A DNA stretch of 64,000 bases from an uncultured bacterium (lineage in GTDB: Bacteria; B130-G9), in contig CBDVDH010000015.1 of NCBI GenBank assembly GCA_965372715.1, positions 2,779 through 66,778 of the forward strand, in the 5' to 3' direction. Both the position numbers and the translations under genes were made by a program. This document shows, in pieces, positions 4,656 to 63,311 of the stretch (its first letter is position 1; the number at the start of each line of letters is the position of its first letter). A model generated the notes under the pieces. It worked only from the letters and a program-made list of their open reading frames with translations. It was not told where the DNA came from and did no database searches.

Positions 4656-7600
4656 ATGCAGCTATTTCAGAGAGATACATACCACCTTGCGACCCGCCTT
4701 ACGGTTACGTTAGTTCTTCTGCTTGGGCCAGTGTTCTTCAGTCTCTGGCCTTTCTGGTCCCTTAATTACGGCAAGGAGCTGTTGTTTCGGTTTCTTGCAG
4801 TGATGCTGGCGTCGTTCTTTGTTGCCGGGTCCATCTCAAGAGGTTCTTTGCGTCTCGACTTAGCCTCGCTTGGCAAGCCCCTAAGGCTGCCTCTTCTGCT
4901 GGTCCTCTTGAGTCTTGCGCTGGCGACGGTCCGGGGAGGGGCCCCATTCGAGGCGAGAGCGACGTTTCTCGACGTCGTATTGGGCTTTTTGTTCGCTCTG
5001 ATTGTCGCCGAGGCCTTCAGGAATCGGACGGTGAAGCCGCTATCGGTTTTGTTCGTGCTGATCTTTGCCGGCGTTGTGAATGCGGGGATGGCAATTGGAC
5101 AATCGTTCGGCTGGGACGTCATTTTTGCGGTCCCGATCGAGGAGGTGGGTGAATCCCTGGTCTCTGGACGCCGCAAGGTGATGGGATTTCTCGGCAATCC
5201 GGTTTTTGTGTCTGAATACATCTCCGCCACGCTGCCATTTGTGCTGGCCGTGCTTCTTATTGGGAGATCGCGGGTCAAGAAGGTTGCGATGGGGGTCGTG
5301 CTCGCATTCCTCGTCGTGGCCCTACTGGTGACGATGACAAGGGCGCCCGCCATTTCAACCATTCTGGGATTCGGCGTGTTCTTGGGTCTGCTCACGATCG
5401 CCGCCGCGAGGACGCCTCATCTTCGCAAGGAGAAGCTGACCGTAGAGTTGGTCATCCTTGCCGTGGTTCTGATTTACGTCGGCGTTTTTGCCAAGTACGC
5501 CGGAGTGCTTGAACGATACTCCGAACGGGGCAGCTTCGACAGGAGGCTCTCTATGTGGTCGAACACAAGGGCCATGATTGAGGAATCGCCCGTCCTGGGT
5601 CATGGTCTTGGCGCCTTCAAGTATCGGTATCTTGACTTTCAGGTGCAGCAGAACCTCAAAAAGATGCAACATTCGCCGCCCCAGCAAGTCAGAATCTCGC
5701 CCAAGGGCGGGCTTGCACACGCTCACAACGAATACTTGCAGATGGCTGCGGAAACCGGCGCAATCGGCCTGTTCTGCTTCGCTTTTCTCGTGGTGTCGGT
5801 ATTCAGATTTGGGATCACCAGCCTCAGGCGGGCGCTGAGGAACAAGAACGACGCCTCGGCAAACGACGAGTGTATAATTGTCGTGTCCGCTCTAACTTCT
5901 CTCGTCATAATACTCGTAAATGGGCTTACCAGCTTTCCGTTGCACATCGCTCCAACAGCGACACTTGGTCTGACAGCAGTTGCGCTCGTAATCGGGCCTT
6001 CGATGAGATTGCGGAATTCGTCCCTGACTCGACAGGGCAGCCATAGCCCCGCGAGGATTGCTAGGACGCCCGGACGTCCTGCCAGATTGCTCCTGACGCT
6101 TGCTGTCTTTGCGGTAGCGATTTGGGCCCTGATGAGTCCAATCAAGGCTTTCCTCGCGGATTATCACGGCTGCGTTGGCGACAGGCTGCGCAAAGCAGGC
6201 TCTACTGAACAGGCGTTCGATAGATACGGATTCGCCGCTGCACTGCAACCGGACGATGGCCGGCTCCTCTTCAAGATGGGGCTTTGCCTGTCCACTACGG
6301 GGAAGCTTGAGCCCGCCCAGGCACTATATGAGGCGTCGCGCTTAACTTACAATGTCCCCGTCCTTCTTGTCTCATCTTCGGAGAACTCACTGAGGCTGGG
6401 GTATGTATTCGAGGCCATACGGGGCTTCAGCCGCGCGTATGCATATACCCAAATGAACCGTTACAATCGACGGCTCGGTGAAATATACCTCCGGCTCGGT
6501 CAGAGCTTCGCGGAGCGCGGACGGTTTGACCTGGCGCTCGGCTGCCTGAATGAGGCGCGAGAGCTTGCCCCTTCGGTGGGCGTTTTAAAGCTGATTGCAG
6601 AGGTTCAGGGGCAGCGAGGTACGAAGCACGACGCGGCCCGGACGTTGACCGAGATCATCGAGATGGACGAGTTCGAGATTGAGGCGGTGTTCAGGCTCGG
6701 GGAATACTACGAGAGCCAGGGGGACCTGTCCCTGGCCAGGAAGTGTTTTGAGAGGGTCAGAAGGCTCGACCCAGGTTTCCGAGGCGTTGGGGACCGCATT
6801 TTTTCGCTATCGCTTGAGCTCTCGAAGAAGGAAGATGTCCCTGCCTGGGAGCGCAGCAAGGACCTGTATCTGATGGGCAAGCTCTTCCTGAACTACGGGC
6901 AGCATCATCAGGCGCAAGAGATGTTCAAGAGAGCCAGAAAGATGGGTGTTAATGTACCGCAAGCCTACTATTTCAGGGGGGAATCCCTTGAAAAGCTGGG
7001 CACACTCGACGAGGCCGAGAGAGAGTACAGAGAAGCATTCTTACTGGATTCTCACGACGCTCGGCCACTTGTGAATCTGTTGAGGCTTTATGACGCCAAT
7101 GATGATGAGGAAGGCATCGAATGGGTTCTACAGAATGTCAAGAACTTCAAGCCGGAATACGAGCTTGAGAAGGTCTTTGTGATGCGAGGTGTGAGTAGCG
7201 ATATGCCGCACTGGCCGGACAACGTCTCTAGAGGAATCCTGCGGGGTATATCGATTGACGAGCTCTCTGTCCAATGGGATAAGAACGTGGCGCTAACGGT
7301 CGTTTGGGATTTGCAGCCGCCGGCTGGGTTGGGTCAATGCTCGGTGGAGCTCTTGCAGGACTTGGGGGGCCAAGTCCTAAGATGCGGTGGTCGGCTTGTT
7401 CTGGTCAAGGACACCGCCAACCTCATTAGAGGCCGGGATGCTTTTAGAGTAACCGAAGGCGCTCCCCTGCTCCTAGGGCCGGATGCGGAATCATGTCCGT
7501 CGCCTGGGCCTGAGGCCTTTATCCTGAATACTGATGCTAGCGTTTCGAGGGCAGTTGGCTATTCCGAGAGGATGCCCGTCGATTCCAGCAATGACTACAT

Positions 7601-46548: not shown

Positions 46549-47364
46549 GTGATACTTGTGACAATGCCACACAATCCATTCTTTGAATATGATGACATCC
46601 GGATCTTCAACGATGATTTCCTCACCACGGATTGCGTGGCCGAGGATTCGATCGACCTGATAGTGACGTCGCCGCCCTACAACGTTGAGATCGATTACGG
46701 TTCCTACGACGATCAAATGTCCTACGCTTCTTACCTCGACTTCACACGTCAGTGGTTGCATAAGGCCTCGTCCGTTCTAAAAGATGACGGGCGCTTATGC
46801 CTCAATATCCCGCTGGACAAGAACAAGGGTGGACAGCAGTCAGTCTATGCCGACATCCTGGGCATCGCCAAGCAGGTGGGCCTCAAGTATCACACCACCA
46901 TCGTCTGGAACGAGCAGAACATCTCGAGGCGCACGGCGTGGGGCTCGTGGCTCTCGGCGAGCGCGCCCTACGTCATCGCGCCCGTTGAGATGATCGCAAT
47001 TCTTTACAAGAACTCCTGGAAGAAGACGAGCGGGTCGGGCAAGTCGGACATCGAAAGGCAGGACTTCATGGATTGGACGAACGGTGTCTGGTCGTTTTCT
47101 GGCGAGAGCAAGAAGCGCGTCGGCCACCCCGCGCCATTTCCCATAGAACTGCCCCGACGATGCATAAAGCTCTTCACGTTCGTCGATGACCTCGTGCTCG
47201 ATCCGTTCGTGGGCAGCGGCTCGACATTGCTCGCATGCGCTTTCACTGGCAGGCGCGGAATGGGCATCGACATCGACCCCCAATACTGCCAGCTCGCCGC
47301 AGATAGATTGACAGAAGAGGCAGAGATCACAATGGCGAGACCGAATACGGAAGCGGTGGGCTAG
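46549..47364 (+). CDS. Site-specific DNA methyltransferase (N4-C/N6-A, beta class), orphan
   Basis: Motif IV TSPPYN precedes motif I DPFVGSGST; HPAPFP. Confidence 0.92.
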   Translation: MILVTMPHNPFFEYDDIRIFNDDFLTTDCVAEDSIDLIVTSPPYNVEIDYGSYDDQMSYASYLDFTRQWLHKASSVLKDDGRLCLNIPLDKNKGGQQSVYADILGIAKQVGLKYHTTIVWNEQNISRRTAWGSWLSASAPYVIAPVEMIAILYKNSWKKTSGSGKSDIERQDFMDWTNGVWSFSGESKKRVGHPAPFPIELPRRCIKLFTFVDDLVLDPFVGSGSTLLACAFTGRRGMGIDIDPQYCQLAADRLTEEAEITMARPNTEAVG

Positions 47365-48033: not shown

Positions 48034-49947
48034 ATGAAAATGAAACGGAGATTGGGAATAAGGGCTTGCAGGGGCATGACCCTCATCGAGGTCGTCATCG
48101 TCATTGCGATCATAGCGACGCTTGCGGCGGTGGCGATCCCATCGCTCGTCACTACCCTTGACCTCAAGGACCGCGAGGCAACTGAAGAGAAGATGAACAA
48201 TCTGGAGGAGGCGCTCAACAACTACTACGAGGACGTCGGCGAGTATCCCTCCTATTTGGACCTTACTAGTGACGGGCGCCAGAAAGCCGACGACAACGGC
48301 TGGACCAGCATCGACTTCCTCGTGTACAATCCATACCCAGAAGAGGGCACGGGCATCAGGGACACAGTCAGACTTAAAAAGTGGAATGGCCCATATCTGA
48401 CAGCATCGTTCCACAAGGAAGACTACAAGAAGGACGCCTGGGGCAGGGCGATAAACTACCAGCCGCAGTATGGCCGTTCGAGGGCCGAATCCGCGGATGG
48501 TCAACAGTATGCGGGCGCAGAAGACCTGCCGGCCAACGCTGTGCTGTTGGCCAGCATGGGCAAGACGCCTGGCTGGGGCTTCAGGGACGCCTCAAAGTCC
48601 GGGTCAGGTGGGACGACTGGCGGAATGATGACCTGGCGCGAGCTCTGCAAGTTCATCTCATACAGCGAGCTCATGAGCAAATACGAGCACATCCTCAAGG
48701 ATAACGTCATCAAAATCATAAGCTGCGCGAACATCGACCGAACGAAGGCCCAGGAGACTGAAGACCGCTACGAGGAGATTAAGACAGCGATCTGCGGCTC
48801 TCCACAGGACCTCGAGGGCGGCGGCTGCATAAGCGGCTTCGCAGCTGACCTTGGCTTAGCATTGCCAAAGGGCGCCGCGGAGACCGTCAACCCTACTGTT
48901 GCGCTCAATCTGGAGTACTTTGCGGACTATGACAATCCACTCCAGCTGCTCATCTTTCGTTTTCTGGATCCTGGGTCGAAGGCCAGGTATTACGGCAATC
49001 CTCGGGACGTCCCGCCTCCCTATAAGATGGGTGGGCCGGACGCATTTGATGCAGACGCTGTGAGGCAAAACAGGGAGGGGCAAGGAGCACCCGGCTATGC
49101 CTGCTTGGGATGGCGAGGTCCCTACATGACCTCCGATTATGGCACCGCCTACACCAACGAGGACGACGACATTGATACGACCTACGATTGCTTTCTCGAC
49201 GGATGGCTCAATCCGCTTGGCGTGTATGAAGAAGGTGACGAGTACAAGGGCGCAGTTCTGGACCTCGGGTTCGGGAACCGGGATGAGGACGAGGATGACT
49301 ACGCCGCCTTGGGTGGTATCATCGCCTCGCCGGGGCCGAATAGAATGTTTGACAGGATGACGGGGATGATGTTAGACCCCAATTGGCAGCGGGCTGGCGG
49401 CAATCCGAGTGGGGTGTTTAGTTCCGAAGGTCAGGACGATGACGACGTGTTTGTGCCGCTCTACAAAGCGGACCTGTGGGCGAACATCGCGCCGGATCCG
49501 GATCCGCCCATTGACACCCCAGTTGACATTCAGATCCACAATTACAACAAGACAATGGAGAATGTGACGGGCATAGTTGTCATATTCCCTGATCCAGGGC
49601 AGCCAGCAGCATTCAATGTCGTAGAACTCATGAGAGGGACCGGGGGGGTCGAACGGCCGATGATTCCCCTGGAAGGGGAGAAAACTACCGTGGTGGCGAA
49701 GAATCAATTCAGCGAATTCAAGCCCGAACTAAACAGCAAAGTCACGACCAACTTGTTCGTTCCAGTAGGGTACGCCTTTTTCTACATCAAGGTGCAGGGT
49801 ACCAGGGCAGGGGCGAATCCCGACTACTGTCCCGCGCTACAGCGGGTGTCTTGGCAAAGCAACGACCGCATTTACGCTCAGCGAGTTTGCGTCAAGAGCG
49901 GGAAATCGACGATTTCCTTGAAGTTCACGGTGCTTGGTGGTGGTTGA
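48034..49947 (+). CDS. Large prepilin-type (GspG-like) protein with duplicated pseudopilin domain
   Basis: Class III signal RG/MTLIEVVIVIAIIATLAAVAIP; WNGPYL...DAWG and a second WRGPYM...DGWLNP...SPGPN; AGGAGG RBS. Confidence 0.85.
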   Translation: MKMKRRLGIRACRGMTLIEVVIVIAIIATLAAVAIPSLVTTLDLKDREATEEKMNNLEEALNNYYEDVGEYPSYLDLTSDGRQKADDNGWTSIDFLVYNPYPEEGTGIRDTVRLKKWNGPYLTASFHKEDYKKDAWGRAINYQPQYGRSRAESADGQQYAGAEDLPANAVLLASMGKTPGWGFRDASKSGSGGTTGGMMTWRELCKFISYSELMSKYEHILKDNVIKIISCANIDRTKAQETEDRYEEIKTAICGSPQDLEGGGCISGFAADLGLALPKGAAETVNPTVALNLEYFADYDNPLQLLIFRFLDPGSKARYYGNPRDVPPPYKMGGPDAFDADAVRQNREGQGAPGYACLGWRGPYMTSDYGTAYTNEDDDIDTTYDCFLDGWLNPLGVYEEGDEYKGAVLDLGFGNRDEDEDDYAALGGIIASPGPNRMFDRMTGMMLDPNWQRAGGNPSGVFSSEGQDDDDVFVPLYKADLWANIAPDPDPPIDTPVDIQIHNYNKTMENVTGIVVIFPDPGQPAAFNVVELMRGTGGVERPMIPLEGEKTTVVAKNQFSEFKPELNSKVTTNLFVPVGYAFFYIKVQGTRAGANPDYCPALQRVSWQSNDRIYAQRVCVKSGKSTISLKFTVLGGG

Positions 49948-54023: not shown

Positions 54024-55008
54024 CGTTATTCCAGCGCCTCCTGAATACTATTTCTGTCATTACTTGCCGATAGGCTGCTATCCTGCTTCTAGCCTCGGCG
54101 CCTTTGCCAAGAAAAAACACAACACTAAAGACTATCAACCTGATCGCCGCGCCAACGGCTATCACCAGCCGCAGGGCGACGCCAGACAGCTTGTCCCTGT
54201 GCCGATCAAAGAAGTAGCACAGACTACAATAGGATTCAAACACGGTTCTCTCAAGCTCTTGGTCCGCGGACGCGCCCTGGGCATGCTCAACCGCAACTTC
54301 TGGGCAGAAGAGAACCCTAAAACCACGCTCACGGAGCCTCAACGACAGGTCCTGGTCCTCGAAGTAAAGGAAAAAGCCGGGGTCAAACAGACCAACGCTC
54401 TCAAGGTGAAGCCTTCTGCATAGAACGCACGCGCCGACTGCGTAGTCAACGTCCCGGCCAGCAACAACACCGTTCGCGGCGCGGCCGGCCTCCTGCCGGT
54501 CAAGTCCCTGCCTGGGCGCGGAGTGGCGACCAAAGGCGCGGTCGAGAAAAAGCATCTTTGCCAAAAGCTCCCGCAAAGTAACCACTCCACGATAGACCGG
54601 CGGGATCGGTTTTGCGTCCCTTTCAAGACCGGGAGCTGCGCACGCTGCGCTCTTGTTCCGCTCGAGGCAATCCACAAGCTGGCGCAGCGCCGGTGCGCCG
54701 ATCTCACAATCGGGGTTCAGAAGCAGGACTAGTTCCTCACGACCCACCATGATCCCAATGTTGCATCCGGTCGCAAAGCCCAGATTCTGCCTACTTTGGA
54801 CGACCTTAACCTCAGGAAACATCGACCTAACCGCCTCGGGCGTCCCGTCAGACGATGCGTTCTCAACAACGACGGTCCGCAAGTCGAAGGAATCGCGGCA
54901 GTTTCGAAGGCTGTTCAGACATCTCACAACCGAATCCTTGCAGTTGTAGCTGACGGAGACGACATCGATAGCCTGAACAGGCGATGAATGTGTTTTCATT
55001 GGTGACAT
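54016..55008 (-). CDS. Glycosyltransferase family 2 (WbbL-like)
   Basis: VSVSYN, VENASSDGT, NLGFATGCNIG, LLLNPD, FFLYFEDQDL. Confidence 0.9.
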   Translation of the reverse strand: MSPMKTHSSPVQAIDVVSVSYNCKDSVVRCLNSLRNCRDSFDLRTVVVENASSDGTPEAVRSMFPEVKVVQSRQNLGFATGCNIGIMVGREELVLLLNPDCEIGAPALRQLVDCLERNKSAACAAPGLERDAKPIPPVYRGVVTLRELLAKMLFLDRAFGRHSAPRQGLDRQEAGRAANGVVAGRDVDYAVGACVLCRRLHLESVGLFDPGFFLYFEDQDLSLRLRERGFRVLFCPEVAVEHAQGASADQELERTVFESYCSLCYFFDRHRDKLSGVALRLVIAVGAAIRLIVFSVVFFLGKGAEARSRIAAYRQVMTEIVFRRRWNNDG

Positions 55009-55214
55009 ATCGGTGTCCGCATTTGTGTTTGGTCAAGAACTCCTCTTGTGGAATTGTGGACAAGAGGCGTCAACAGGTCAAGGACTTCAAGAACGTTGCC
55101 TTTGATGTGGGTTTTGCAGTGTGTCGTCCATCATTCAGATTCGCAACGGCGTGTGGTTTCATTCACTGGGCCTCGTGATGTTCTTGGCCTCCTCCCGCGT
55201 TTTCGACACGCTCT

Positions 55215-55300
55215 TGTCACATTCTGTTACACTGTTCCCGGATGAGCCATTCTCGCGTATCCGAGCGGCTATAAGGCTCCATGAGTCACATATTGTTACA
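55215..55300. promoter_or_regulatory. Two putative enhancer-binding-protein sites
   Basis: TGTCACATTCTGTTACA (55215-55231, TGT-N11-ACA) and AGTCACATATTGTTACA (55284-55300), 14 of 17 identical, 170-255 bp upstream of a sigma54 site. Confidence 0.65.
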
Positions 55301-55443
55301 GATTCTTTGTGTAGCAGACCCCGAGATTAGACATTAACGACGCACGGTGCGGTTGCGGCACGACCTCCTATTCTTACCGCACACGGCGCAATCGGCGATC
55401 ACAAGGGCAAGAGCGCCCACACCACAAGATTTAGTGGGATTGA

Positions 55444-55460
55444 TTGGCACAGGACGTGCT
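55444..55460 (+). promoter_or_regulatory. Sigma54 (-24/-12) promoter
   Basis: TTGGCAC-AGGAC-GTGCT with GG at 55446-47 and GC at 55458-59; predicted TSS near 55471. Confidence 0.7.
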
Positions 55461-55470
55461 TAAACACAGA

Positions 55471-55765
55471 AGCGAGACAGATGTTGTGGTTTTGGGAATC
55501 GAGAGGCTGGCTTAGCACATTAAATCGGGGCGGAGACGAGTGTGTGGTTTCGAAGAGTTCTCCTCTTTCGAGATTAGGCTTCTCGCCCGTTGCATTTCTC
55601 CATAGGTGTCGTGTGGGAAAGCGTTGGTCTCGGTGCCTGCTGATGCGGAATCCAACTGGGCGTTGGATGCGTAACAGGGGCGCTGGGCCTTTCCCCACTT
55701 TTTGATTCTAAGTTATAAAAGTCTCTTGAGTAGTATAGGGAACCGGTTGGTTCCCGTTTTTTTTT
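55471..55765 (+). ncRNA. Candidate structured non-coding RNA (~295 nt), family not recognised
   Basis: Bounded by sigma54 promoter and terminator; closing stem 55484-55506/55698-55718 and two long internal hairpins, all rich in G-U pairs on the + strand; no convincing ORF. Confidence 0.6.
55738..55765 (+). terminator. Intrinsic terminator
   Basis: GGGAACC-GGTT-GGTTCCC then G and a 9-T run. Confidence 0.85.
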
Positions 55766-56310
55766 GATCAAACTGCCGCGGCGCTCTGAGCTTCCGTTTC
55801 AGCCATTTCTGCGTGGGATTCGGGAGCGGTAGTGAATGGGGGCCTAGCATAAGTGTCGAGCGCAGGTTTCCCGATCCAGCGCCATAATGGGATGAGTCAG
55901 CGGAATGCGAGATGGTATATGTAGTGGGCAGAGTTGTGCATGTGGCCAGTATATAGACGCACGCATCCCCCGTGTGGATTTCGGCTACACACGGGCCCGG
56001 TATTGGTCCACGCAACAGGCCCACCGGAAAGCGTCCTGGTCACTTCCTCCCTTTTGCTTCGGTCAAATGCGCCTCAAGGAGGCTTTCGCTAGTCGCTCTC
56101 CGTGCGGCAGATCGGCGCCTTTGGTGTTGTCTGCACTGAGCACTGCCCTCAGAGGTAAGCCTTTGGATCGTGCTGGTTCGGTCATCGCCAGGCTTGACAG
56201 TTCGGTGGGTTCCGAGTTATAGAAAAGGGACAGGGATGAGTTCCTGTTACGGGCGGCCAGAGAGTACGGATTGATCTGAACGACGTTTTCATATTGTCGG
56301 GAGGTTAGAT

Positions 56311-56586
56311 GTGATGGACAAGGACTACATGCCGATTGCGAAAGCGGACATAGAGAAGTCCCAGATGGGCGATGAGACATTGCTCTACAACTCGGACAAC
56401 GACAAGGTGACGGTATTGAATAAGACGGCTGCCGCTGTCTGGCAGCTTTGCGACGGGAAGCATACCATTTCGCAGATCACAGAAATGATAAACGAGAGTT
56501 TCAACCCGCCGGATGATTGCGACGTGTCCGGCGACGTTGAGGCGACGATTGAGAAGTTTAGGCAAGACGGGGTTCTGAAGGAGTAG
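56311..56586 (+). CDS. PqqD family RiPP recognition element (stand-alone)
   Basis: GDETLLYNSDNDKVTVLNKTAAAVWQLCDGKHTISQI...DVEATIEKF; GGAGG RBS; TTGACA at 56194 upstream. Confidence 0.9.
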   Translation: MMDKDYMPIAKADIEKSQMGDETLLYNSDNDKVTVLNKTAAAVWQLCDGKHTISQITEMINESFNPPDDCDVSGDVEATIEKFRQDGVLKE

Positions 56587-56722
56587 TGTTTGTTCCTTCA
56601 ATTCTGACGTATTATCAACAAGGGCAGCCCAGTTCAGGGTGGCGAAATGGCCCGCCATTGTTGAGCGGTGCGTTCGGATTATGACGCAGCGTTGGGACAT
56701 CAGGTCATTCGGAGTTTGAAAG

Positions 56723-58114
56723 TTGTCAGAGGTCATCACGGTTTCTCATGCGAGGCCCAAGCTGCCAGACGGGGTAGTTGAGCTTTCTCGTGCCGGTCAA
56801 TACCTTTTGCTGCACCCCAGATTGCCGAAGTTCGCGCTGCTAAACGACACCGCCCGGTTCATCGCATCCCTTTGTGACGGGCGCCGGACGAGTTCGGACA
56901 TAGCCCGGCTGGTCGCGAGCCACTACGGGATTGATGTTGACCGGGTCTCTTCTGACGTCGAATGCTCATTGAAGCAGCTTGAGGCGTCAGGGATGTTCAG
57001 CGACATGGTTCTAGACGAGAAGAGGTCTTTCGCGAGAGAAAACAAACGGGTTCATCTCACTATTACGGGCCACTGCAACCTCAGGTGCGCGCATTGCGGC
57101 ACGGTCGGTTCGCTGCACAAGGACGACGCCCTCACCACTTCAGACGTTAGATACATCGTGGATCAGTTGGCCGCAGTGCCGGGGTCCTCGATTGCGATCA
57201 CGGGAGGGGAGCCACTTCTTCGCAAGGACATTGTCGAAATCGTTGAATACTCCGCCCAACGGACAAAGACGATCGTCTCCACAAATGGGACGCTCGTGAC
57301 CGAGGAGCTTGCGAGGGGGCTCGGGCCACTTCCCGTGACGTTTCAGGTTAGTCTGGACGGTGCTACGGCGGAGGTTCACGACCCCATCCGAGGCTCAGGT
57401 GAGTTTCAGAGAGCGCTAAACGGCATCAAGCTGTTGCAGCGAAACGGAGCGGGGTCGAACGTCGAAATCTGCCGGACCGTCATGGGCCAGCCGGAGGACG
57501 ATTTTGATGCCCTGCTCGAGTTGGGTGAAAGCCTGGGAGTTGGGGGAATAAGGTTCCTTTGCCTGGCACGGTTGGGGCGGGCGGAGGACGACTACGATAT
57601 GCTCAATCCGACGTTTGGGAGCTTTCGAAAGTTCTATAAGGCTTACTTCAAGGCGATCTCTGATTCCGGCAGCAAGATTTCCGTGGGCGGCGGTATTCCA
57701 GGCCTTTACATCGACGTCCCGGACAGCACAATGTGGTGTCACGTTGGGGAGATGCTCGAGGTCGATCCGGAGGGGAAGATATATCCCTGCTCCATGTTGA
57801 ATCATCAGGAGTATGAGCTAGGCAATATCTGGGAGATGACGTTGCAGCAGGCTGCTGAATGCGATAGATTCATGCGGCTTCACGAGCTTCTCGCGGGCAG
57901 AGTCGAGAGGATCGAGGTGTGCAAGAAATGCGCCTTCAAGAACTACTGTCAGGGCGGATGCCCCGGAATGGCGCTGGTTGATAATGGGACTTTATTGGCA
58001 CAAGATGCCATTTGCGAGCTTCGCAAGGAGTTGTTTGAGGACCTTTTCTTCGAGGTTCTCCCGAAGCTCACGAGCAAACACGCTCTAAGCAGCTCTGAGG
58101 AGATTCAGATATAG
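56723..58114 (+). CDS. RRE-fused radical SAM/SPASM peptide maturase
   Basis: N-terminal RRE (LNDTARFIASLCDGRRT), CNLRCAHC, TGGEPLL, SLDG, SPASM CHVG...IYPC...CKKCAFKNYCQGGCP...C. Confidence 0.92.
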   Translation: MSEVITVSHARPKLPDGVVELSRAGQYLLLHPRLPKFALLNDTARFIASLCDGRRTSSDIARLVASHYGIDVDRVSSDVECSLKQLEASGMFSDMVLDEKRSFARENKRVHLTITGHCNLRCAHCGTVGSLHKDDALTTSDVRYIVDQLAAVPGSSIAITGGEPLLRKDIVEIVEYSAQRTKTIVSTNGTLVTEELARGLGPLPVTFQVSLDGATAEVHDPIRGSGEFQRALNGIKLLQRNGAGSNVEICRTVMGQPEDDFDALLELGESLGVGGIRFLCLARLGRAEDDYDMLNPTFGSFRKFYKAYFKAISDSGSKISVGGGIPGLYIDVPDSTMWCHVGEMLEVDPEGKIYPCSMLNHQEYELGNIWEMTLQQAAECDRFMRLHELLAGRVERIEVCKKCAFKNYCQGGCPGMALVDNGTLLAQDAICELRKELFEDLFFEVLPKLTSKHALSSSEEIQI

Positions 58115-58181
58115 CAATATCGAGGCGTGTCCGATACGCTTGGCTGTAGTTTCTTTCAAGTGAACGGTTCGGAGAGGTAGA

Positions 58182-59378
58182 TTGGCGCAACTGGTTACTC
58201 CAAGCCCCGAACAAGTCATCAAGAAGTTCGGCAAGCTCTGCGCTCACGCGGAGTACTATCGAGTATTTGAGCTCGATCTCTGTATCCGTTCTGACTCGGC
58301 AACCATCCTGTCGTATTTTGAGAAAATGTACTCGCATTTTGTTGTTCCGCCCCCGGATAAGCAGGTGCTCACTTACTACGTTATTGAGACACCGGTGGTT
58401 CGCGGGAACCCCGTCATCGTAGCTGACGACAGGGTTTACCTGGTTCGCAATCCGGACATATTACCCGGGTTTTCATACATGACTGTTTTCAACTCGTTTA
58501 TTGCCAAACTCCGGGAGCATTTTCTTATCCATTCGGGGGCCATGGAGTTCAAGGGCAACGGGATAATCATTCCGGGCGCGGCCCGCTGCGGCAAGACAAC
58601 CGTTACCCTATCGCTGATCGGCCGCGGGTTTTCTCTCTTCTCCGACGAGATCGCGGCGATTCACCGGCTCGACCACAAGGTCTATCCCTTCCCGAGGGGC
58701 CTCGGCATGCGCGAGGGAGTTGGGCACACTTTAAGGGGCGTTGACTTCGAGAGGCTCGAAACCATACCAATGATCGGTGGTGGTTTCAAACGCGTCCTGG
58801 ACATTGGTGAGCTGAAGGGAGCGCTGGCTACAGAGCCGTGTCCCGCGAAGTTCATATTCTTTCTTGTGCCATCTGTGGACGAGGACTACTCCCAGTTGGC
58901 GTCGCAGAAGGTTCTATACCTAATAACGAGTGATGTGCCCGGCAAAATGCTCGCCGAAATGGGCAAGGTTGATGGCGTTGAGTCGGTGGAGGTTACGGGC
59001 GACACCTCCGAGGCGAAGTTCCCAATCGTCCGTTTCCGCGTTCAGAGCGGCTATCCCGTCCTGGCGAAGCTGGAAGAGATATGCTACAATCACAATGTTC
59101 TGATCTTTGACACCGTCAAGGGTGAACACGTCAAACCTGACTTTGAGGGACGACCGCAGCTGACGCCAATGCCATATTCCAGGGCGATGTTTGAGCTTCT
59201 AACAAGGGCCCGGTCCGGCGCGCGCTCGGCGCTCTTGACCACCCAGTTCAAGGGAAGCGTCACAAAGATGTACCTTGCGCTCGCCGACATCGTCAGAAAG
59301 ACGAAATGCTACGAACTGGTCGTCGGCAGGCTCGACGAAATGATCGACATGATCGAAGAGACAGTTGCCGGCGATTAG
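58182..59378 (+). CDS. HPr kinase-related P-loop protein
   Basis: FLIHSGAM, Walker A GAARCGKTT, FSDEIAAI, PFPRGL. Confidence 0.8.
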   Translation: MAQLVTPSPEQVIKKFGKLCAHAEYYRVFELDLCIRSDSATILSYFEKMYSHFVVPPPDKQVLTYYVIETPVVRGNPVIVADDRVYLVRNPDILPGFSYMTVFNSFIAKLREHFLIHSGAMEFKGNGIIIPGAARCGKTTVTLSLIGRGFSLFSDEIAAIHRLDHKVYPFPRGLGMREGVGHTLRGVDFERLETIPMIGGGFKRVLDIGELKGALATEPCPAKFIFFLVPSVDEDYSQLASQKVLYLITSDVPGKMLAEMGKVDGVESVEVTGDTSEAKFPIVRFRVQSGYPVLAKLEEICYNHNVLIFDTVKGEHVKPDFEGRPQLTPMPYSRAMFELLTRARSGARSALLTTQFKGSVTKMYLALADIVRKTKCYELVVGRLDEMIDMIEETVAGD

Positions 59379-59419
59379 GTAAGAAGAACCTGATCTGCAC
59401 CTCGAAAGGGGGCTCGTAT

Positions 59420-62400
59420 ATGAAGATAACGCTCGCTTCAAGACCGTTTTTCCACCTTCTGCTGGCAGCCTCGCTCTTTGCGATGGTTTCGGGCCCAGTT
59501 TTTTGCGCCGAAATAGCGAAGGCCGTTGTGCGCGAGAGCGGCGAGAGTCATTTCCTAATTGATTTCGAGGCGCCCAGACCCACATTCGGATGGGACGAGC
59601 TTGAAGGTAATCTGTATGACGTTGTGAAGGTCGCTGGCTGTGAAAGCATCGGTGAGCCGGGCAGGCCGGATGTGCCGTTTCTGGGCTTCTTGCTTGCGGT
59701 CCCATCGGACTGCGAGCCTTCTGCCAATTGCGAATCGGCTCAGGATGAGGAGTTCTTCGGCTTTCACGTCGCGCCGAGCCCGCGGTTCGTCAGGGCGGAG
59801 CTGGGCGAGACGGTTGCTCTTGAGCCTCGCTTTGAGCTAGACGAGGAGCAATACAACACCGACGCCTACTACCCAGACTCGATCGTCGAGGCGGAGTACT
59901 TCGGGGTTCTGCGGGGGCAGCCGCTCATCCGTGTGATGGTCTTCCCGGTGAGGTTCAATCCGGTCTCGGGCAGCCTTCAGGTCATCAAGCGAGCGACCTT
60001 TACGGTGCACTTCGAGAGGGATTCGACCAAATCGCGTTGCAGCAGAGCAGGCGTTCTATATTCGGAGATTGGGTCATCGTCCAGAATGGTCGATGCGGTC
60101 AAGAGCTGCGTCGCAAACCCCGACGATGTCCAGCCCATTTTGGCCAGGGATGTCCCGGCCTCGGACCATGACGTGATACCGCTTGCGAACGGTTTGCACC
60201 AATACAAGATCGCCGTTAGCGAGGACAGCATCTACGAGGTTACGGGCGCCGACTTGGTTGCGGCGGGCATCACAATCTCGACGATCGCCCCGGACGGACT
60301 TGCGATAGGCAATCTAGGACAAGGTGTTGCGATTCTCGTCGAGGACGGCGCCGACGGAAGCTTTGATGAGTCGGACTACCTCCTGTTTTGGGGCGAGGCG
60401 CCGGAGAGCGAGTTCACGAACTACAACATATACTGGCTCGACTTCGATCGGGAAGTGGCTTTGAGAATGGAGGTTGTTGATGCTGCTCCGACCGGTGGGG
60501 CGCCGGTCGCCACGTCCTTTATCAATACACCACGATTTGAGGAGGACACAAGCTATTGGCAAAACATCCCCGACAGCGAGGGCGAGGACCACTACTTCTG
60601 GGGAGCCTATGTCCCAGCTCCTGACACCGAGACATATCCATTGGAAATCCACAACCTTTCAAGTGAGGCCTTCAACGCGACAATAATCGTTGAGTTCAGG
60701 GGAAGGACCGATATAACACGCGTTGATCCTGACCATCACACCCAGATACTGCTCAACGATCAGATCATCGATGACAAGACGTGGAACGGCCAGATCAAGT
60801 TCATTCACAGCATTACAGGTCCGCAGTCTCTGCTTCGGAATGGACGAAACGAACTGAAGGTGGAGTATCCGGGCGACCTAACGCTCGTTGACCAGGTCTT
60901 TTTCAACTACTTCCAGATCACGTATCTCGCGACGTTCGTGGCGACCGTCGGTGTGCTAGAGTTCTCGCCTCAGGAAACAGGCTTGACTGAGTTTCGAGTC
61001 AGCGGCTTTTCGTCGGACGAGATAATGGTGTTCGACGTGACTGACCCCTTTGGAGTGAAGAACCTCACGAACGTCTCTGTTGCGCCTGACGGTGACGGGT
61101 TCGCCGTGAGCTTTCAGGACGACACGTCTCCCGATAAGAGATATGTCGTCGCTCAGAGCTCAGCGTTTAGGACCGGGATGTCGCTTCAACCTGACATTCC
61201 CTCCTCTCTCATGTCGGCCGAGAACCGGGCCGACTATATCATCATCTCACACGCCAATTTCATTGAGGCAGCCGAGGGCATAGCCCAGCATCATGCGGCG
61301 AAGGGCGAGGTGGTGCTGCTGGCTGACGTTGAGGACATCTATGACGAGTTCAATTTCGGCCTAAAGAGCCCGCAGGCCATAAAGGATTTCCTGGAGTACG
61401 CGTATGAGAATTATTCACCGCCTCCTCCGACAGACGTGTTGCTCGTGGGCGATGCGGACATGGATTACAAAAACAGAGTTGGTTCGGAGGTCGATTTCGT
61501 GCCAACCCACGTTTACAACGATCCCGATACAAGGCGCCTCGGCGAGACGCCGACCGACAATTGGTTCGTGTGTGTTGATGGCCCGGACGTCCTGCCCGAC
61601 ATGAACATCGGGCGGATCTGCGCCAAACGCGCGAGCGACGTCGATGACGTGCTTGCCAAAATACAGGCTTATGACAACGGTCAGGCGAGCGGCGACTGGT
61701 TATATAGGGTGCTTCTTGTCGCCGACGGTGAGAGCGCCTCGGTTGCCATCAACCAACAACTGAGCTCGTTCTACCTGCCTGATGAGTATGAGGACACTCA
61801 CGTCAACTTCAATGACTACGGTTCAGGACAAGATGCCAATGAGGACATAATCTCAAATCTCAACGAAGGCTGTCTGCTGGTCAATTACGCGGGCCACGGT
61901 AACATAAACAGGTGGGCCAAGGGCATGTTCTCTTCAGGCGACGTGGCCGGGCTCCAAAACGGTGTTCGGATGCCGTTTGTGATAACTTTGACCTGCCTGA
62001 ACGGTTTCTTTCCACATCTGGACAGCACCGCGTGCTTGGGCGACGTTTTCATGAAAACGGCCGGGAAAGGCGCTATAGCCTCCTGGTCCCCGACCGGCGT
62101 TGACACACCCTCCAACCATTCGATACTGGTAAATGTGTTCTTCGAGTCGGTCTTCTATGATTTCAACTGCTACCTGGGCGCGGCCACGACGACCGCCAAG
62201 GTCCGGGGCTACGCGATCGCGGGATATAGCAGTTATTTCGACTGCATAGTCGAGACATTTACACTGTTCGGCGACCCCGGACTTGCACTCGCTGTTCCGA
62301 CGGCGCCGCCGGAGCCGCGTCTCACGGTCTGGACTGATAAGGAAACATATTACGCCGATCAGACTATCAACGTCGATGTGATGCTTGAGAACACCGGCGG

Positions 62401-62659
62401 CGCATCGATGCAGGTTGATGCCTACCTGGCTCTGGATTACAACGGAACGCTTCTCTACTATCCTAGCTTCGGCCTCGAGCCGGCGCCAATTCCCGTCGAT
62501 CTTCCCGCGTTTCTGAAGTTGAGGCTTCGCGCCGCCTCTTTGGCAGTGCCGAACCCGGCGCCTGCCGGGACATACGCGTTCTATGCGGCGCTGACACAGC
62601 CCGGCGACATGTCGCAGATCATCGGCGCAATAGACGCGGCGACGTTCGAGATCCGCTGA
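59420..62659 (+). CDS. C25 (gingipain/PorU-like) cysteine peptidase with propeptide and shared C-terminal domain
   Basis: Signal peptide from ATG 59420, GEPGRPDVP propeptide, ADYIIIS, DIYDEF, LLVGDA, DMNIGRI, catalytic NYAGHG and TLTCLNG, LFGDP. Confidence 0.9.
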   Translation: MKITLASRPFFHLLLAASLFAMVSGPVFCAEIAKAVVRESGESHFLIDFEAPRPTFGWDELEGNLYDVVKVAGCESIGEPGRPDVPFLGFLLAVPSDCEPSANCESAQDEEFFGFHVAPSPRFVRAELGETVALEPRFELDEEQYNTDAYYPDSIVEAEYFGVLRGQPLIRVMVFPVRFNPVSGSLQVIKRATFTVHFERDSTKSRCSRAGVLYSEIGSSSRMVDAVKSCVANPDDVQPILARDVPASDHDVIPLANGLHQYKIAVSEDSIYEVTGADLVAAGITISTIAPDGLAIGNLGQGVAILVEDGADGSFDESDYLLFWGEAPESEFTNYNIYWLDFDREVALRMEVVDAAPTGGAPVATSFINTPRFEEDTSYWQNIPDSEGEDHYFWGAYVPAPDTETYPLEIHNLSSEAFNATIIVEFRGRTDITRVDPDHHTQILLNDQIIDDKTWNGQIKFIHSITGPQSLLRNGRNELKVEYPGDLTLVDQVFFNYFQITYLATFVATVGVLEFSPQETGLTEFRVSGFSSDEIMVFDVTDPFGVKNLTNVSVAPDGDGFAVSFQDDTSPDKRYVVAQSSAFRTGMSLQPDIPSSLMSAENRADYIIISHANFIEAAEGIAQHHAAKGEVVLLADVEDIYDEFNFGLKSPQAIKDFLEYAYENYSPPPPTDVLLVGDADMDYKNRVGSEVDFVPTHVYNDPDTRRLGETPTDNWFVCVDGPDVLPDMNIGRICAKRASDVDDVLAKIQAYDNGQASGDWLYRVLLVADGESASVAINQQLSSFYLPDEYEDTHVNFNDYGSGQDANEDIISNLNEGCLLVNYAGHGNINRWAKGMFSSGDVAGLQNGVRMPFVITLTCLNGFFPHLDSTACLGDVFMKTAGKGAIASWSPTGVDTPSNHSILVNVFFESVFYDFNCYLGAATTTAKVRGYAIAGYSSYFDCIVETFTLFGDPGLALAVPTAPPEPRLTVWTDKETYYADQTINVDVMLENTGGASMQVDAYLALDYNGTLLYYPSFGLEPAPIPVDLPAFLKLRLRAASLAVPNPAPAGTYAFYAALTQPGDMSQIIGAIDAATFEIR

Positions 62660-62711
62660 TGCTCACTGCCTTCAGCCCCACAAACGGTTTGGCACAAAGC
62701 GTAGGAAGGGG

Positions 62712-63311
62712 TTGAAGTTGGCTGAACTAGACCATCGACTTGCGGACGAAGTCCTTGAGCTGTGGAAATCAAAGGGCAGGCAAAGCGTTCTGAAGACAAC
62801 AGGGCTCAGCATGGTCCCAACGCTCGAGCCTGGCGACGAGATCGTTGTTCGGCACGCTGATGTCCGCGAGATCAAGCGAGGAGACCTCGTCACCTTCAAG
62901 GTCGGGCCCGAGGTTGTAACCCACAGAGTCATCAAACGAATAGAAACAGATGGCAGCCTTTCGTTCCTTCAGAAAGGCGACAAAGGTACCAGAACCTTTC
63001 CTTTGCCCGCCGATTGCGTCGTCGGGAGAGTCGTCGAGATAAGGCTAAGGTCGGGCAGACACGTGATATCGCTGACTAGTCGGTTTGCCAGGTCGGCGGG
63101 TTACGCGGTCGCGCTGCTTGAGCTGCTGTTCGACGGACCGATTCGATACCTCTCAAAAAAACTAAAGGACAGGAACGGCAGTCGAGGGAGCGGGCCTCTA
63201 TTCTTCTACCGCGTTTTCCTGCGACTCAGAGACAAGACAATAGGCCCGGTTCTCAAAGTGGTGAGACTACTGTGCAGAACGTGCGTCAAGTCGGAGGGTG
63301 AGTCGGGGTAA
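62712..63311 (+). CDS. S24/S26 family (signal-peptidase-like, Ser-His) peptidase
   Basis: TGLSMVPTLEPGD, RGDLVTF, VTHRVI, QKGD, VVGRV. Confidence 0.85.
   Translation: MKLAELDHRLADEVLELWKSKGRQSVLKTTGLSMVPTLEPGDEIVVRHADVREIKRGDLVTFKVGPEVVTHRVIKRIETDGSLSFLQKGDKGTRTFPLPADCVVGRVVEIRLRSGRHVISLTSRFARSAGYAVALLELLFDGPIRYLSKKLKDRNGSRGSGPLFFYRVFLRLRDKTIGPVLKVVRLLCRTCVKSEGESG

Follow-up and report, generated by a model that had tools for sequence, protein, structure and literature searches.

The window analysed here, a 64,000-nt stretch of contig CBDVDH010000015.1 from an uncultured bacterium, carries at positions 56311-63311 a cassette of five genes. They encode a PqqD-type recognition element for peptides that are made by the ribosome and modified after translation (RiPPs), a radical SAM/SPASM enzyme, an HprK-like kinase, a C25 peptidase and an S26 peptidase. 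This cassette is probably a single-copy maturation operon for ribosomal peptides of about 40 residues, which are encoded elsewhere in the genome. The original prediction for this DNA had proposed a RiPP-like or surface-protein maturation system with its substrate elsewhere, and seven peptides encoded in trans, which have a YxxPxV leader and are paired with secreted proteins, agree with that proposal.

The candidate precursors were reached through relatives of the cassette. A comparison of gene neighbourhoods gave no conserved short open reading frame (ORF) in the gaps on either side of the window's PqqD gene. In outgroup loci, which were retrieved with a three-sequence kinase alignment, an ORF of ~40 aa is found in cis beside the PqqD and/or kinase gene (L099, L100, L101 and L104; for example MEDRKLPEYEAPEVVTYTDEEIFEKLGPAHTGYVRGDGLL), and the window PqqD is 41-42% identical to the PqqD genes that adjoin the cis precursors in L100 and L101. 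Such cis ORFs, with PqqD, C25 and S26 genes as neighbours, are known here from Brocadia and Desulfobacteraceae, and among anammox bacteria the cis form is carried by Brocadia or Kuenenia. When the 119,569 six-frame ORFs of the window's genome were searched with a hidden Markov model (HMM) built from three of the cis ORFs, it placed two paralogues at the top (E ~0.04) and a third in the fourth rank (E 4), and these three first-found peptides have an identical 16-residue C-terminus, LGPSLSCTGFGGSVSC. The phylum set used for comparison is formed by seven Coatesbacteria-like genomes from four genera of one family. Counts within the phylum are not independent, and all genomes compared are metagenome-assembled genomes (MAGs). 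A profile of the three own peptides matches in 7/7 genomes of this set, with 3-17 matches each at E<=1 (11, 10, 3, 8, 6, 17 and 5), and the window's genome has seven full-length peptide genes.

The seven peptides share the leader M-x(3-7)-Y-E-x-P-x-V-x-T-L...L-G-P-S-L-S and the core C-T-G-F-G-G-(S/A)-x-x-C, and 28 distinct full-length peptides were recovered, every one of them with Cys as the terminal residue. Within the phylum, across the four genera and up to 17 profile matches per genome, the core hardly varies. Judged by their codons and start regions, the peptide genes are real, since all 12 core codon columns of the seven paralogues vary synonymously, as against only three amino-acid changes, and six of the seven genes are preceded by a GGAG-type ribosome-binding site. 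The reciprocal search, in which 15,565 ORFs of other loci were scanned with an HMM built from 21 peptides of this phylum alone, gave 16 top matches with E values from 3.5e-7 to 0.12, all of them small ORFs at kinase/C25 cassettes or just downstream of a tail-domain gene (described below); the earliest unrelated match is at E 0.31. The peptide family comprises 246 clusters in a collection of 5.8 billion proteins, none with a name or a Pfam domain. Its extra-phylum members combine a leader that is almost constant, ...LPxYEAPxVxTYTDEEILEELGPA[QH][TA], with a core of 7-12 residues that is hypervariable, and one peptide leader weakly matches the model NF033528 lasso_cyano (E 0.099).

The peptides are probably linked to the cassette by their leader. 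In the whole genome (95.9% complete) there are exactly two PqqD domains, those of the cassette. The YExPxV of the leader fits the motif [Y/W]xxPx[L/V/I/F/A], which, according to the main text of PMC13381572, is bound by the RiPP recognition elements (RREs) of lasso peptides and of the linear polyphosphorylated peptide (LPP) pathway. In the locus L193, a precursor with the two-Cys core CSPSPC lies directly before a radical SAM enzyme that is 32% identical over 443 aa to that of the window, while Brocadia-type cores beside cassettes with no radical SAM gene mostly have no Cys. The L193 locus, from a SEEP-SRB2 MAG, has an S26-like ORF that runs in frame and with no stop into the precursor (6795-7550, plus strand; 251 aa), which could be a peptidase-precursor fusion or reflect an internal start, and this ORF is followed by the radical SAM, kinase and C25 genes.

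Secreted proteins are the usual neighbours of the peptides. Six of the seven peptide genes flank genes of this kind, which encode DUF1565/beta-helix proteins, one Kelch-plus-beta-helix protein and one C25 paralogue. These neighbours have in common a C-terminal domain of ~120 aa, with the motif ...WETGTEIxNAGFxxYR...GASYSFxDxNVxPGxxYxYWLVDIxTSGKWTAHGP..., here called the tail domain. It has no meaningful match among Pfam and NCBIfam models at E<=10, and its predicted fold is a beta-sandwich like that of fibronectin type III (FN3) domains, with a predicted local distance difference test score (pLDDT) of 77 overall and above 85 in the core. The tail-domain profile has strong matches (E<1e-50) in 12 proteins of the genome, eight of which flank peptide genes. 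Among the 28 peptide loci of the phylum, 23 carry the tail domain, always on the strand of the peptide and nearly all just upstream of it.

This pairing extends to other phyla. The tail domain forms the C-terminus of proteins directly upstream of Brocadia precursors (E 4e-26 and 2.5e-28), and it accompanies C25, S26 and PqqD genes in Chloroflexota, Planctomycetota, Acidobacteriota and Desulfobacterota. The best 80 of 190 relatives of the domain gave 67 loci, 39 of them outside the phylum. In these 39, a peptide is found within ~500 nt downstream of the tail domain in nine loci and elsewhere in the locus in four more, and 15 hold at least one of the kinase, C25, S26 and PqqD genes. All five extra-phylum genomes reached through loci with both tail domain and peptide hold a full-length kinase-family gene elsewhere, which means that this phylum is not alone in having trans-encoded precursors. 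In four Chloroflexota loci (L202 5821-6792, L204 4662-5216, L214 5863-6927 and L216 3599-4351) the FN3-like domain is located just after an N-terminal hydrophobic stretch. The ORFs of L202 and L214 are complete and encode long Pro/Thr-rich proteins with a C-terminal membrane anchor; those of L204 and L216, also PT-rich, run off the contig end. The gene follows directly the C25-S26-PqqD genes in L202, L204 and L216.

Several observations weigh against a maturation operon for these peptides. The initial profile matches are weak when taken alone (E 0.04 to 4). The pairing with secreted proteins has gaps, as four of the 12 strong tail-domain proteins have no adjoining peptide gene, the peptide of contig C6 has no tail-domain neighbour, and 26 of the 39 extra-phylum tail-domain loci showed no peptide with the profile used. 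The locus L192 has a two-Cys core and no radical SAM gene within 12 kb, so the radical SAM enzyme and Cys are not strictly linked. Every genome of the phylum has both the cassette and the peptides, and presence or absence therefore cannot discriminate. Finally, the cassette has no exporter, although the C25 peptidase looks secreted and the peptides have no signal peptide.

The five genes form a conserved operon, more than chance arrangement would give. The original prediction had named failure of the genes to co-occur in other genomes as the observation that would speak against it, and the five genes are single-copy and syntenic across the phylum. The kinase-like gene is present in 7/7 genomes, and its product is the most conserved cassette member, with 76-83% identity across genera. 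The five-gene order is kept in the three loci that are long enough to show order (L001, L094 and L095, from genera g1, g2 and g4). A divergent trio of genes, for a family 2 glycosyltransferase (GT2), an unknown secreted protein and a DUF362 protein, adjoins the cassette in some genera only. A profile search of 1.84 billion representative proteins recovered the kinase family at full length (~380 aa) in 144 clusters at E<=1e-30, with 845 bits for its own clade and 297 for the next. The 19 matching sequencing runs are all DNA metagenomes, each with <=0.28 of the sampled words. In a sister species (radical SAM enzyme 97% identical), the cassette has two tandem C25 genes (L001 9820-13113 and 13248-16484), of which the second is 58% identical to the window C25. 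The related genome G002 has on another contig a second, divergent HprK-like gene of 367 aa (L096 4491-5594, minus strand), with 41% identity over 66 aa around the P-loop.

Outside the phylum, loci of Anaerolineae, Brocadia and Desulfobacteraceae have the order kinase, C25 (~1,070-1,090 aa), S26 and a PF14907 nucleotidyltransferase, and linkage of kinase, C25 and S26 genes is seen in Anaerolineae, Planctomycetota, Acidobacteriota and Desulfobacterota. The window C25 shares 36% identity over 926 aa with the C25 of the Brocadia cassette and is placed above the other C25 paralogues of its genome by the Brocadia query (580 vs 341 bits) and by the Anaerolineae query (524 vs 265 bits). The window S26 is 28% identical to the cassette S26 of Brocadia and is the sole match of that query in the genome. 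The eight C25-family matches in the genome are on contigs C15, C21, C42, C1, C47, C51, C62 and C2; the C1 match sits inside a 3,970-aa open frame, and among the eight only the C62 copy has the tail domain.

The five co-oriented genes of the original prediction are all present as ORFs on the plus strand where it had placed them (Table 1), and what it had read from their products holds in the domain and motif analysis. It had described two RREs, one stand-alone and one fused, and Pfam PqqD matches are found in the PqqD gene and at the N-terminus of the radical SAM enzyme. The latter has a PqqD-type RRE (residues 27-91), a Radical_SAM domain (113-267) and a SPASM domain (342-403) by Pfam. It has CX3CX2C (C118/C122/C125), and the full SPASM Cys set claimed for it is read from the sequence as CX2CX5CX3C (C400-C413), with further Cys at C339, C356, C380 and C431. 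Its closest solved relative is CteB (5wgg, E 1.2e-13) and the second is anSME.

The third protein, taken earlier for a P-loop kinase-like protein, has the Walker A GAARCGKTT. Its AlphaFold2 (AF2) model (pLDDT 90.3) resembles PEPCK and HprK/P folds, and its match to Hpr_kinase_C (PF07475) reaches 29.9 bits, below the cut-off of 33.3, and covers only residues 110-166. The C25 protein fits the description as a secreted gingipain-like protease with intact His and Cys, since the His of GHG and the Cys of TCLNG align with RgpB and PorU. Its longest ORF is 59306-62659, within which the ATG at 59420 begins a stretch like a signal peptide, and Pfam finds Peptidase_C25 (E 6.9e-81) and Propeptide_C25. 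The last protein, described before as a Ser-His peptidase, has Ser33, His71 and Asp90. It matches Pfam S24/S26 and passes TIGR02228 only just (52.7 vs a cut-off of 51.85), and it is the only cassette protein that reaches an NCBIfam equivalog cut-off. Its N-terminus is a charged helix-like stretch with no membrane segment.

Table 1. Cassette genes, possible operon promoter and trans-encoded peptide genes. Positions preceded by a contig label lie on other contigs of the same genome; the remaining ones are positions of the window.
Feature	Position	Strand	Basis
Stand-alone PqqD-type RRE (LppB-like), 91 aa	56311..56586	+	Pfam PqqD E 2.5e-11
Radical SAM/SPASM enzyme with fused N-terminal RRE, 463 aa	56723..58114	+	Pfam domains, Cys motifs
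HprK/PEPCK-fold P-loop kinase-like protein (LppK-like), 398 aa	58182..59378	+	domain matches, Walker A, AF2 fold
C25 (gingipain/PorU-like) cysteine peptidase with C25 propeptide, predicted secreted, 1079 aa from ATG	59420..62659	+	Pfam, motifs
Soluble archaeal-type signal-peptidase-I-like Ser-His-Asp peptidase (LppS-like), 199 aa	62712..63311	+	TIGR02228, residues
Possible operon promoter of sigma-70 type, TTGACA and TTATAGA with a spacer of 17-18 nt	56196..56228	+	read from sequence
Peptide gene	C89:2730-2852		
Peptide gene	C62:16111-16233		
Peptide gene	C17:24315-24434		
Peptide gene	C31:7325-7444		
Peptide gene	C14:57986-58108		
Peptide gene	C14:55738-55863		
Peptide gene	C6:30310-30423		

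The closest characterised system is the LPP pathway of Bacillota, with the proteins LppA, LppK, LppB, LppS, LppD and LppN (Popov et al., Nat Commun 2026, PMC13381572). According to the main text of that paper, LppK polyphosphorylates Ser3 of the core, LppS (S29/H68/D93) cuts the leader only when the RRE LppB is present, and the final product and role of the pathway are still unknown. The window system resembles the pathway, in the form described in that text, by its discrete PqqD-type RRE, comparable to LppB; by its HprK-like kinase, a likeness judged by domains, Walker A and fold and not by alignment with LppK itself; by its soluble archaeal-type peptidase similar to signal peptidase I (SpI), where Ser33/His71/Asp90 stand for the S29/H68/D93 of LppS; by the YxxPxV-type leader of the precursors; and by a PF14907 nucleotidyltransferase, which is found in the cassettes of relatives and elsewhere in its own genome.

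The window system differs from the LPP pathway by the addition of a radical SAM/SPASM enzyme with its own RRE and of a C25 peptidase of ~1,080 aa that is predicted to be secreted, whereas the PF14907 protein LppN and the MsbA-like exporter LppD of the published description are not in the window operon. No exporter or nucleotidyltransferase is present among the five genes or their immediate neighbours. The precursors also differ, being multi-copy, in trans, on other contigs and paired with tail-domain proteins, and the organism belongs to a phylum other than Bacillota. The main text of PMC13381572 does not contain the terms "radical SAM", "C25" or "gingipain". The presence of the radical SAM/SPASM enzyme argues for a cross-link added to an LPP-type linear phosphorylated product. 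From homology to this characterised system and from comparative genomics, the cytoplasmic part of the window system appears to be an LPP-like pathway with a radical SAM cross-linking step. The own genome has a stand-alone PF14907 nucleotidyltransferase on contig C7 (C7:23275-24552; L145 6275-7552, minus strand), just upstream of rimP-nusA-infB; this protein is just 19% identical to the cassette-linked nucleotidyltransferase of Brocadia and may or may not serve the cassette.

In the proposed mechanism, the YExPxV leader would be bound by the stand-alone PqqD protein and by the RRE that the radical SAM enzyme carries. The radical SAM/SPASM enzyme would cross-link the two-Cys core, probably by a thioether as CteB does, and the HprK-like kinase would phosphorylate a residue with a hydroxyl group close to where the core begins, for which Thr2 is the candidate. 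Signal peptidases prefer small residues at -3 and -1. Because of this preference and of the alignment with the cis forms, the leader is predicted to end after LGPSLS, a cut with small residues at -3/-1 that would give the core CTGFGG(S/A)xxC. The soluble S26 protein is the proposed leader peptidase and would act on a substrate presented by PqqD, as LppB does for LppS. The secreted C25 peptidase would then act extracytoplasmically, with the peptide, the tail-domain proteins or both of these as its substrate, and this is the least certain step. The conservative reading of its role would be extracellular trimming of the peptide, and the bolder one PorU-like sorting or attachment, with the peptide as acceptor.

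Other known systems are more distant. The original prediction had noted a resemblance to the SynChlorMet and HPr-rel cassettes, which did not hold up when the recommended HMMs were run, since all scores are far below the cut-offs: among the SynChlorMet models (TIGR04248-04251), ScmD gives 35.1 vs 100, ScmE 121.1 vs 400 and ScmF 98.8 vs 400 bits, and among those of HPr-rel-A (TIGR04352/04353), the kinase model TIGR04352 gives 52.7 vs 200 bits and TIGR04353 has no match to the window PqqD. The mycofactocin models of NCBIfam likewise fall far short for the cassette proteins. It had also held that the products of the resembling cassettes were not known to be characterised; a characterised relative of the window system, the LPP pathway, is now described in the main text of PMC13381572.

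Phosphorylated lasso peptides of the paeninodin type, which are made with an HprK-like kinase, a PqqD-type B1 protein and a nucleotidyltransferase, share with the window system the kinase family, the RRE type and, by the account in the main text of PMC13381572, the Y/WxxP leader motif. They differ in their cyclisation and leader removal, as neither a lasso macrolactam synthetase (C) nor a B2 cysteine protease is seen among the cassette genes, to which the search for them was confined, and the leader peptidase of the window system is a serine peptidase of the S26 type. Sactipeptide and ranthipeptide maturases (CteB with SCIFF, StsB and PapB) have the same RRE-radical SAM-SPASM architecture and a Cys-containing core. 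The window enzyme nevertheless scores below every NCBIfam equivalog cut-off (top match StsB, 138 vs 625 bits), and the kinase, S26 and C25 partners are foreign to those pathways. Clustering of the radical SAM enzyme with a characterised maturase had been a second point named against the original prediction, and the named subfamilies StsB and PapB are far below their cut-offs. In full-text searches of one paper library, none of the papers listed brings C25 or gingipain together with PqqD, HprK or an RRE, and the words kinase, C25 and signal peptidase do not occur in the main text of a 2025 RRE survey (PMC12710340).

The alternative that survives best, and is still unlikely, is surface-protein sorting. 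It shares the cytoplasmic steps with the maturation reading and differs in the purpose of the peptide: the PorU-like C25 peptidase would recognise and cleave the FN3-like tail and transfer the cargo to the matured peptide, phosphorylated and perhaps glycosylated, as a consumable anchor or acceptor. The model for such a process is the system of type IX secretion (T9SS), with which the window system shares a C25-family enzyme and cargo with a C-terminal beta-sandwich domain. T9SS C-terminal domains are beta-sandwiches, as the tail domain is predicted to be. PorU and PorU2 are the top NCBIfam matches of the window C25, and PorU (6za2) is among its best solved relatives; the scores, however, are under the cut-offs (244 vs 420 bits for NF033707 and 189 vs 450 bits for NF052324). 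Cargo and peptide genes follow one another on one strand, 30-450 nt apart, which suggests stoichiometric use, and one C25 paralogue itself bears the tail domain and comes after a peptide gene. The company that the tail domain keeps with C25, S26 and PqqD genes in four other phyla points in the same direction.

Against sorting, neither side of the tail domain shows an evident conserved cleavage motif, the domain is N-terminal in the PT-rich membrane-anchored proteins of Chloroflexota, no export route is seen for the peptide and there is no evidence of a conjugate. SprA and PorV had no match in the genome, a result that does not prove their absence, since the SprA control was detected nowhere and the PorV control only below the cut-off. 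The system also differs from the T9SS in that the tail domain is outside Pfam and NCBIfam and in that a ribosomal peptide and RiPP enzymes are attached to it. Taken to its full extent, sorting would make the cassette part of one undescribed surface-display system, widespread in uncultured phyla, to which the dispersed peptide genes and the proteins with the tail domain also belong. There the peptide would be cross-linked, phosphorylated and trimmed in the cytoplasm and then used one-for-one by a PorU-like C25 transpeptidase as acceptor or anchor for FN3-tailed secreted proteins, a proposal that is itself unlikely.

Less probable again is that the cassette makes a secreted bioactive RiPP of the usual kind, such as an antimicrobial or a signal, for which the C25 peptidase would be an extracellular trimming protease and the adjacency to surface-protein genes would be meaningless. 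The wider family has a conserved leader and a short hypervariable core, as many natural-product RiPPs do, and the enzyme set of RRE, radical SAM enzyme and leader peptidase would suit such a product. Yet within the phylum the core is nearly invariant, unlike that of diversifying bacteriocins, and the system is universal; the pairing with the tail domain is kept across phyla, and the cassette has no exporter or immunity gene. It is highly improbable that the substrate is a large protein, be it the C25 peptidase itself or the secreted beta-helix proteins, and that the small peptides are unrelated. The operon has no precursor, and some radical SAM/SPASM enzymes mature proteins, as does anSME, the second-best solved relative, but the presence of two PqqD-type RREs implies that the substrate is a peptide with a leader, a homologous small ORF is found in cis in homologous cassettes, and the peptides bear the RRE-type YxxPxV in a genome that has no other RRE.

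The surroundings of the cassette agree with the original statement that no precursor is visible in the window, where the peptide profiles gave nothing better than E 0.9. The 1.3-kb gap upstream of the PqqD gene has no small ORF conserved between genera; its sole element conserved across genera matches in all frames and on both strands and is non-coding. The 136-nt gap between the PqqD and radical SAM genes was also discarded as a precursor site, as this gap is only 27-31 nt in the other genera and thus has no conserved ORF. The non-coding element of the 1.3-kb gap is a conserved, single-copy unit at 55445-55768 (plus strand) and is present in 7/7 genomes of the phylum. It is formed by a sigma-54-type promoter (TTGGCAC-N5-GTGCTTA), a structured region of ~300 nt and an intrinsic terminator, and it has a 27-nt invariant block and a long imperfect hairpin with some compensatory changes. 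This element stays with the GT2 gene where GT2 is unlinked from the cassette and was therefore set aside from the system. Rfam gave nothing in the window at gathering thresholds, and for 54900-56800 there was still nothing when matches up to E 5 were allowed. The genome has its 6S RNA gene elsewhere. The possible operon promoter, read from the sequence, would lie ~85 nt upstream of the PqqD gene, and a similar ...TCGAGTTAT... block is found upstream of PqqD in L003 and L004. Further upstream, the window encodes an N6/N4 DNA methyltransferase (46549-47364, plus strand) and a 637-aa protein with a prepilin-type N-terminal methylation motif (48034-49947, plus strand).

With these peptides, a cassette that had no substrate becomes a testable system, with precursor sequences, a predicted cleavage site and candidate modified residues. 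The LPP pathway, its sole characterised relative, is thereby tied to a family of much wider extent, in which a radical SAM enzyme and a giant protease similar to PorU are added, and RiPP mining tools that demand a precursor in the cluster would overlook such systems. The co-occurrence of RiPP enzymes, a small peptide and FN3-tailed secreted proteins across at least five phyla is a new three-way association. If surface display is its function, it would be a peptide-based analogue of the attachment of T9SS cargo to anionic lipopolysaccharide (A-LPS), and the peptide a structural rather than an antibiotic RiPP. If the association reflects protein attachment, lineages that have no cultured members, including anammox bacteria, would possess a sorting mechanism of a new kind.

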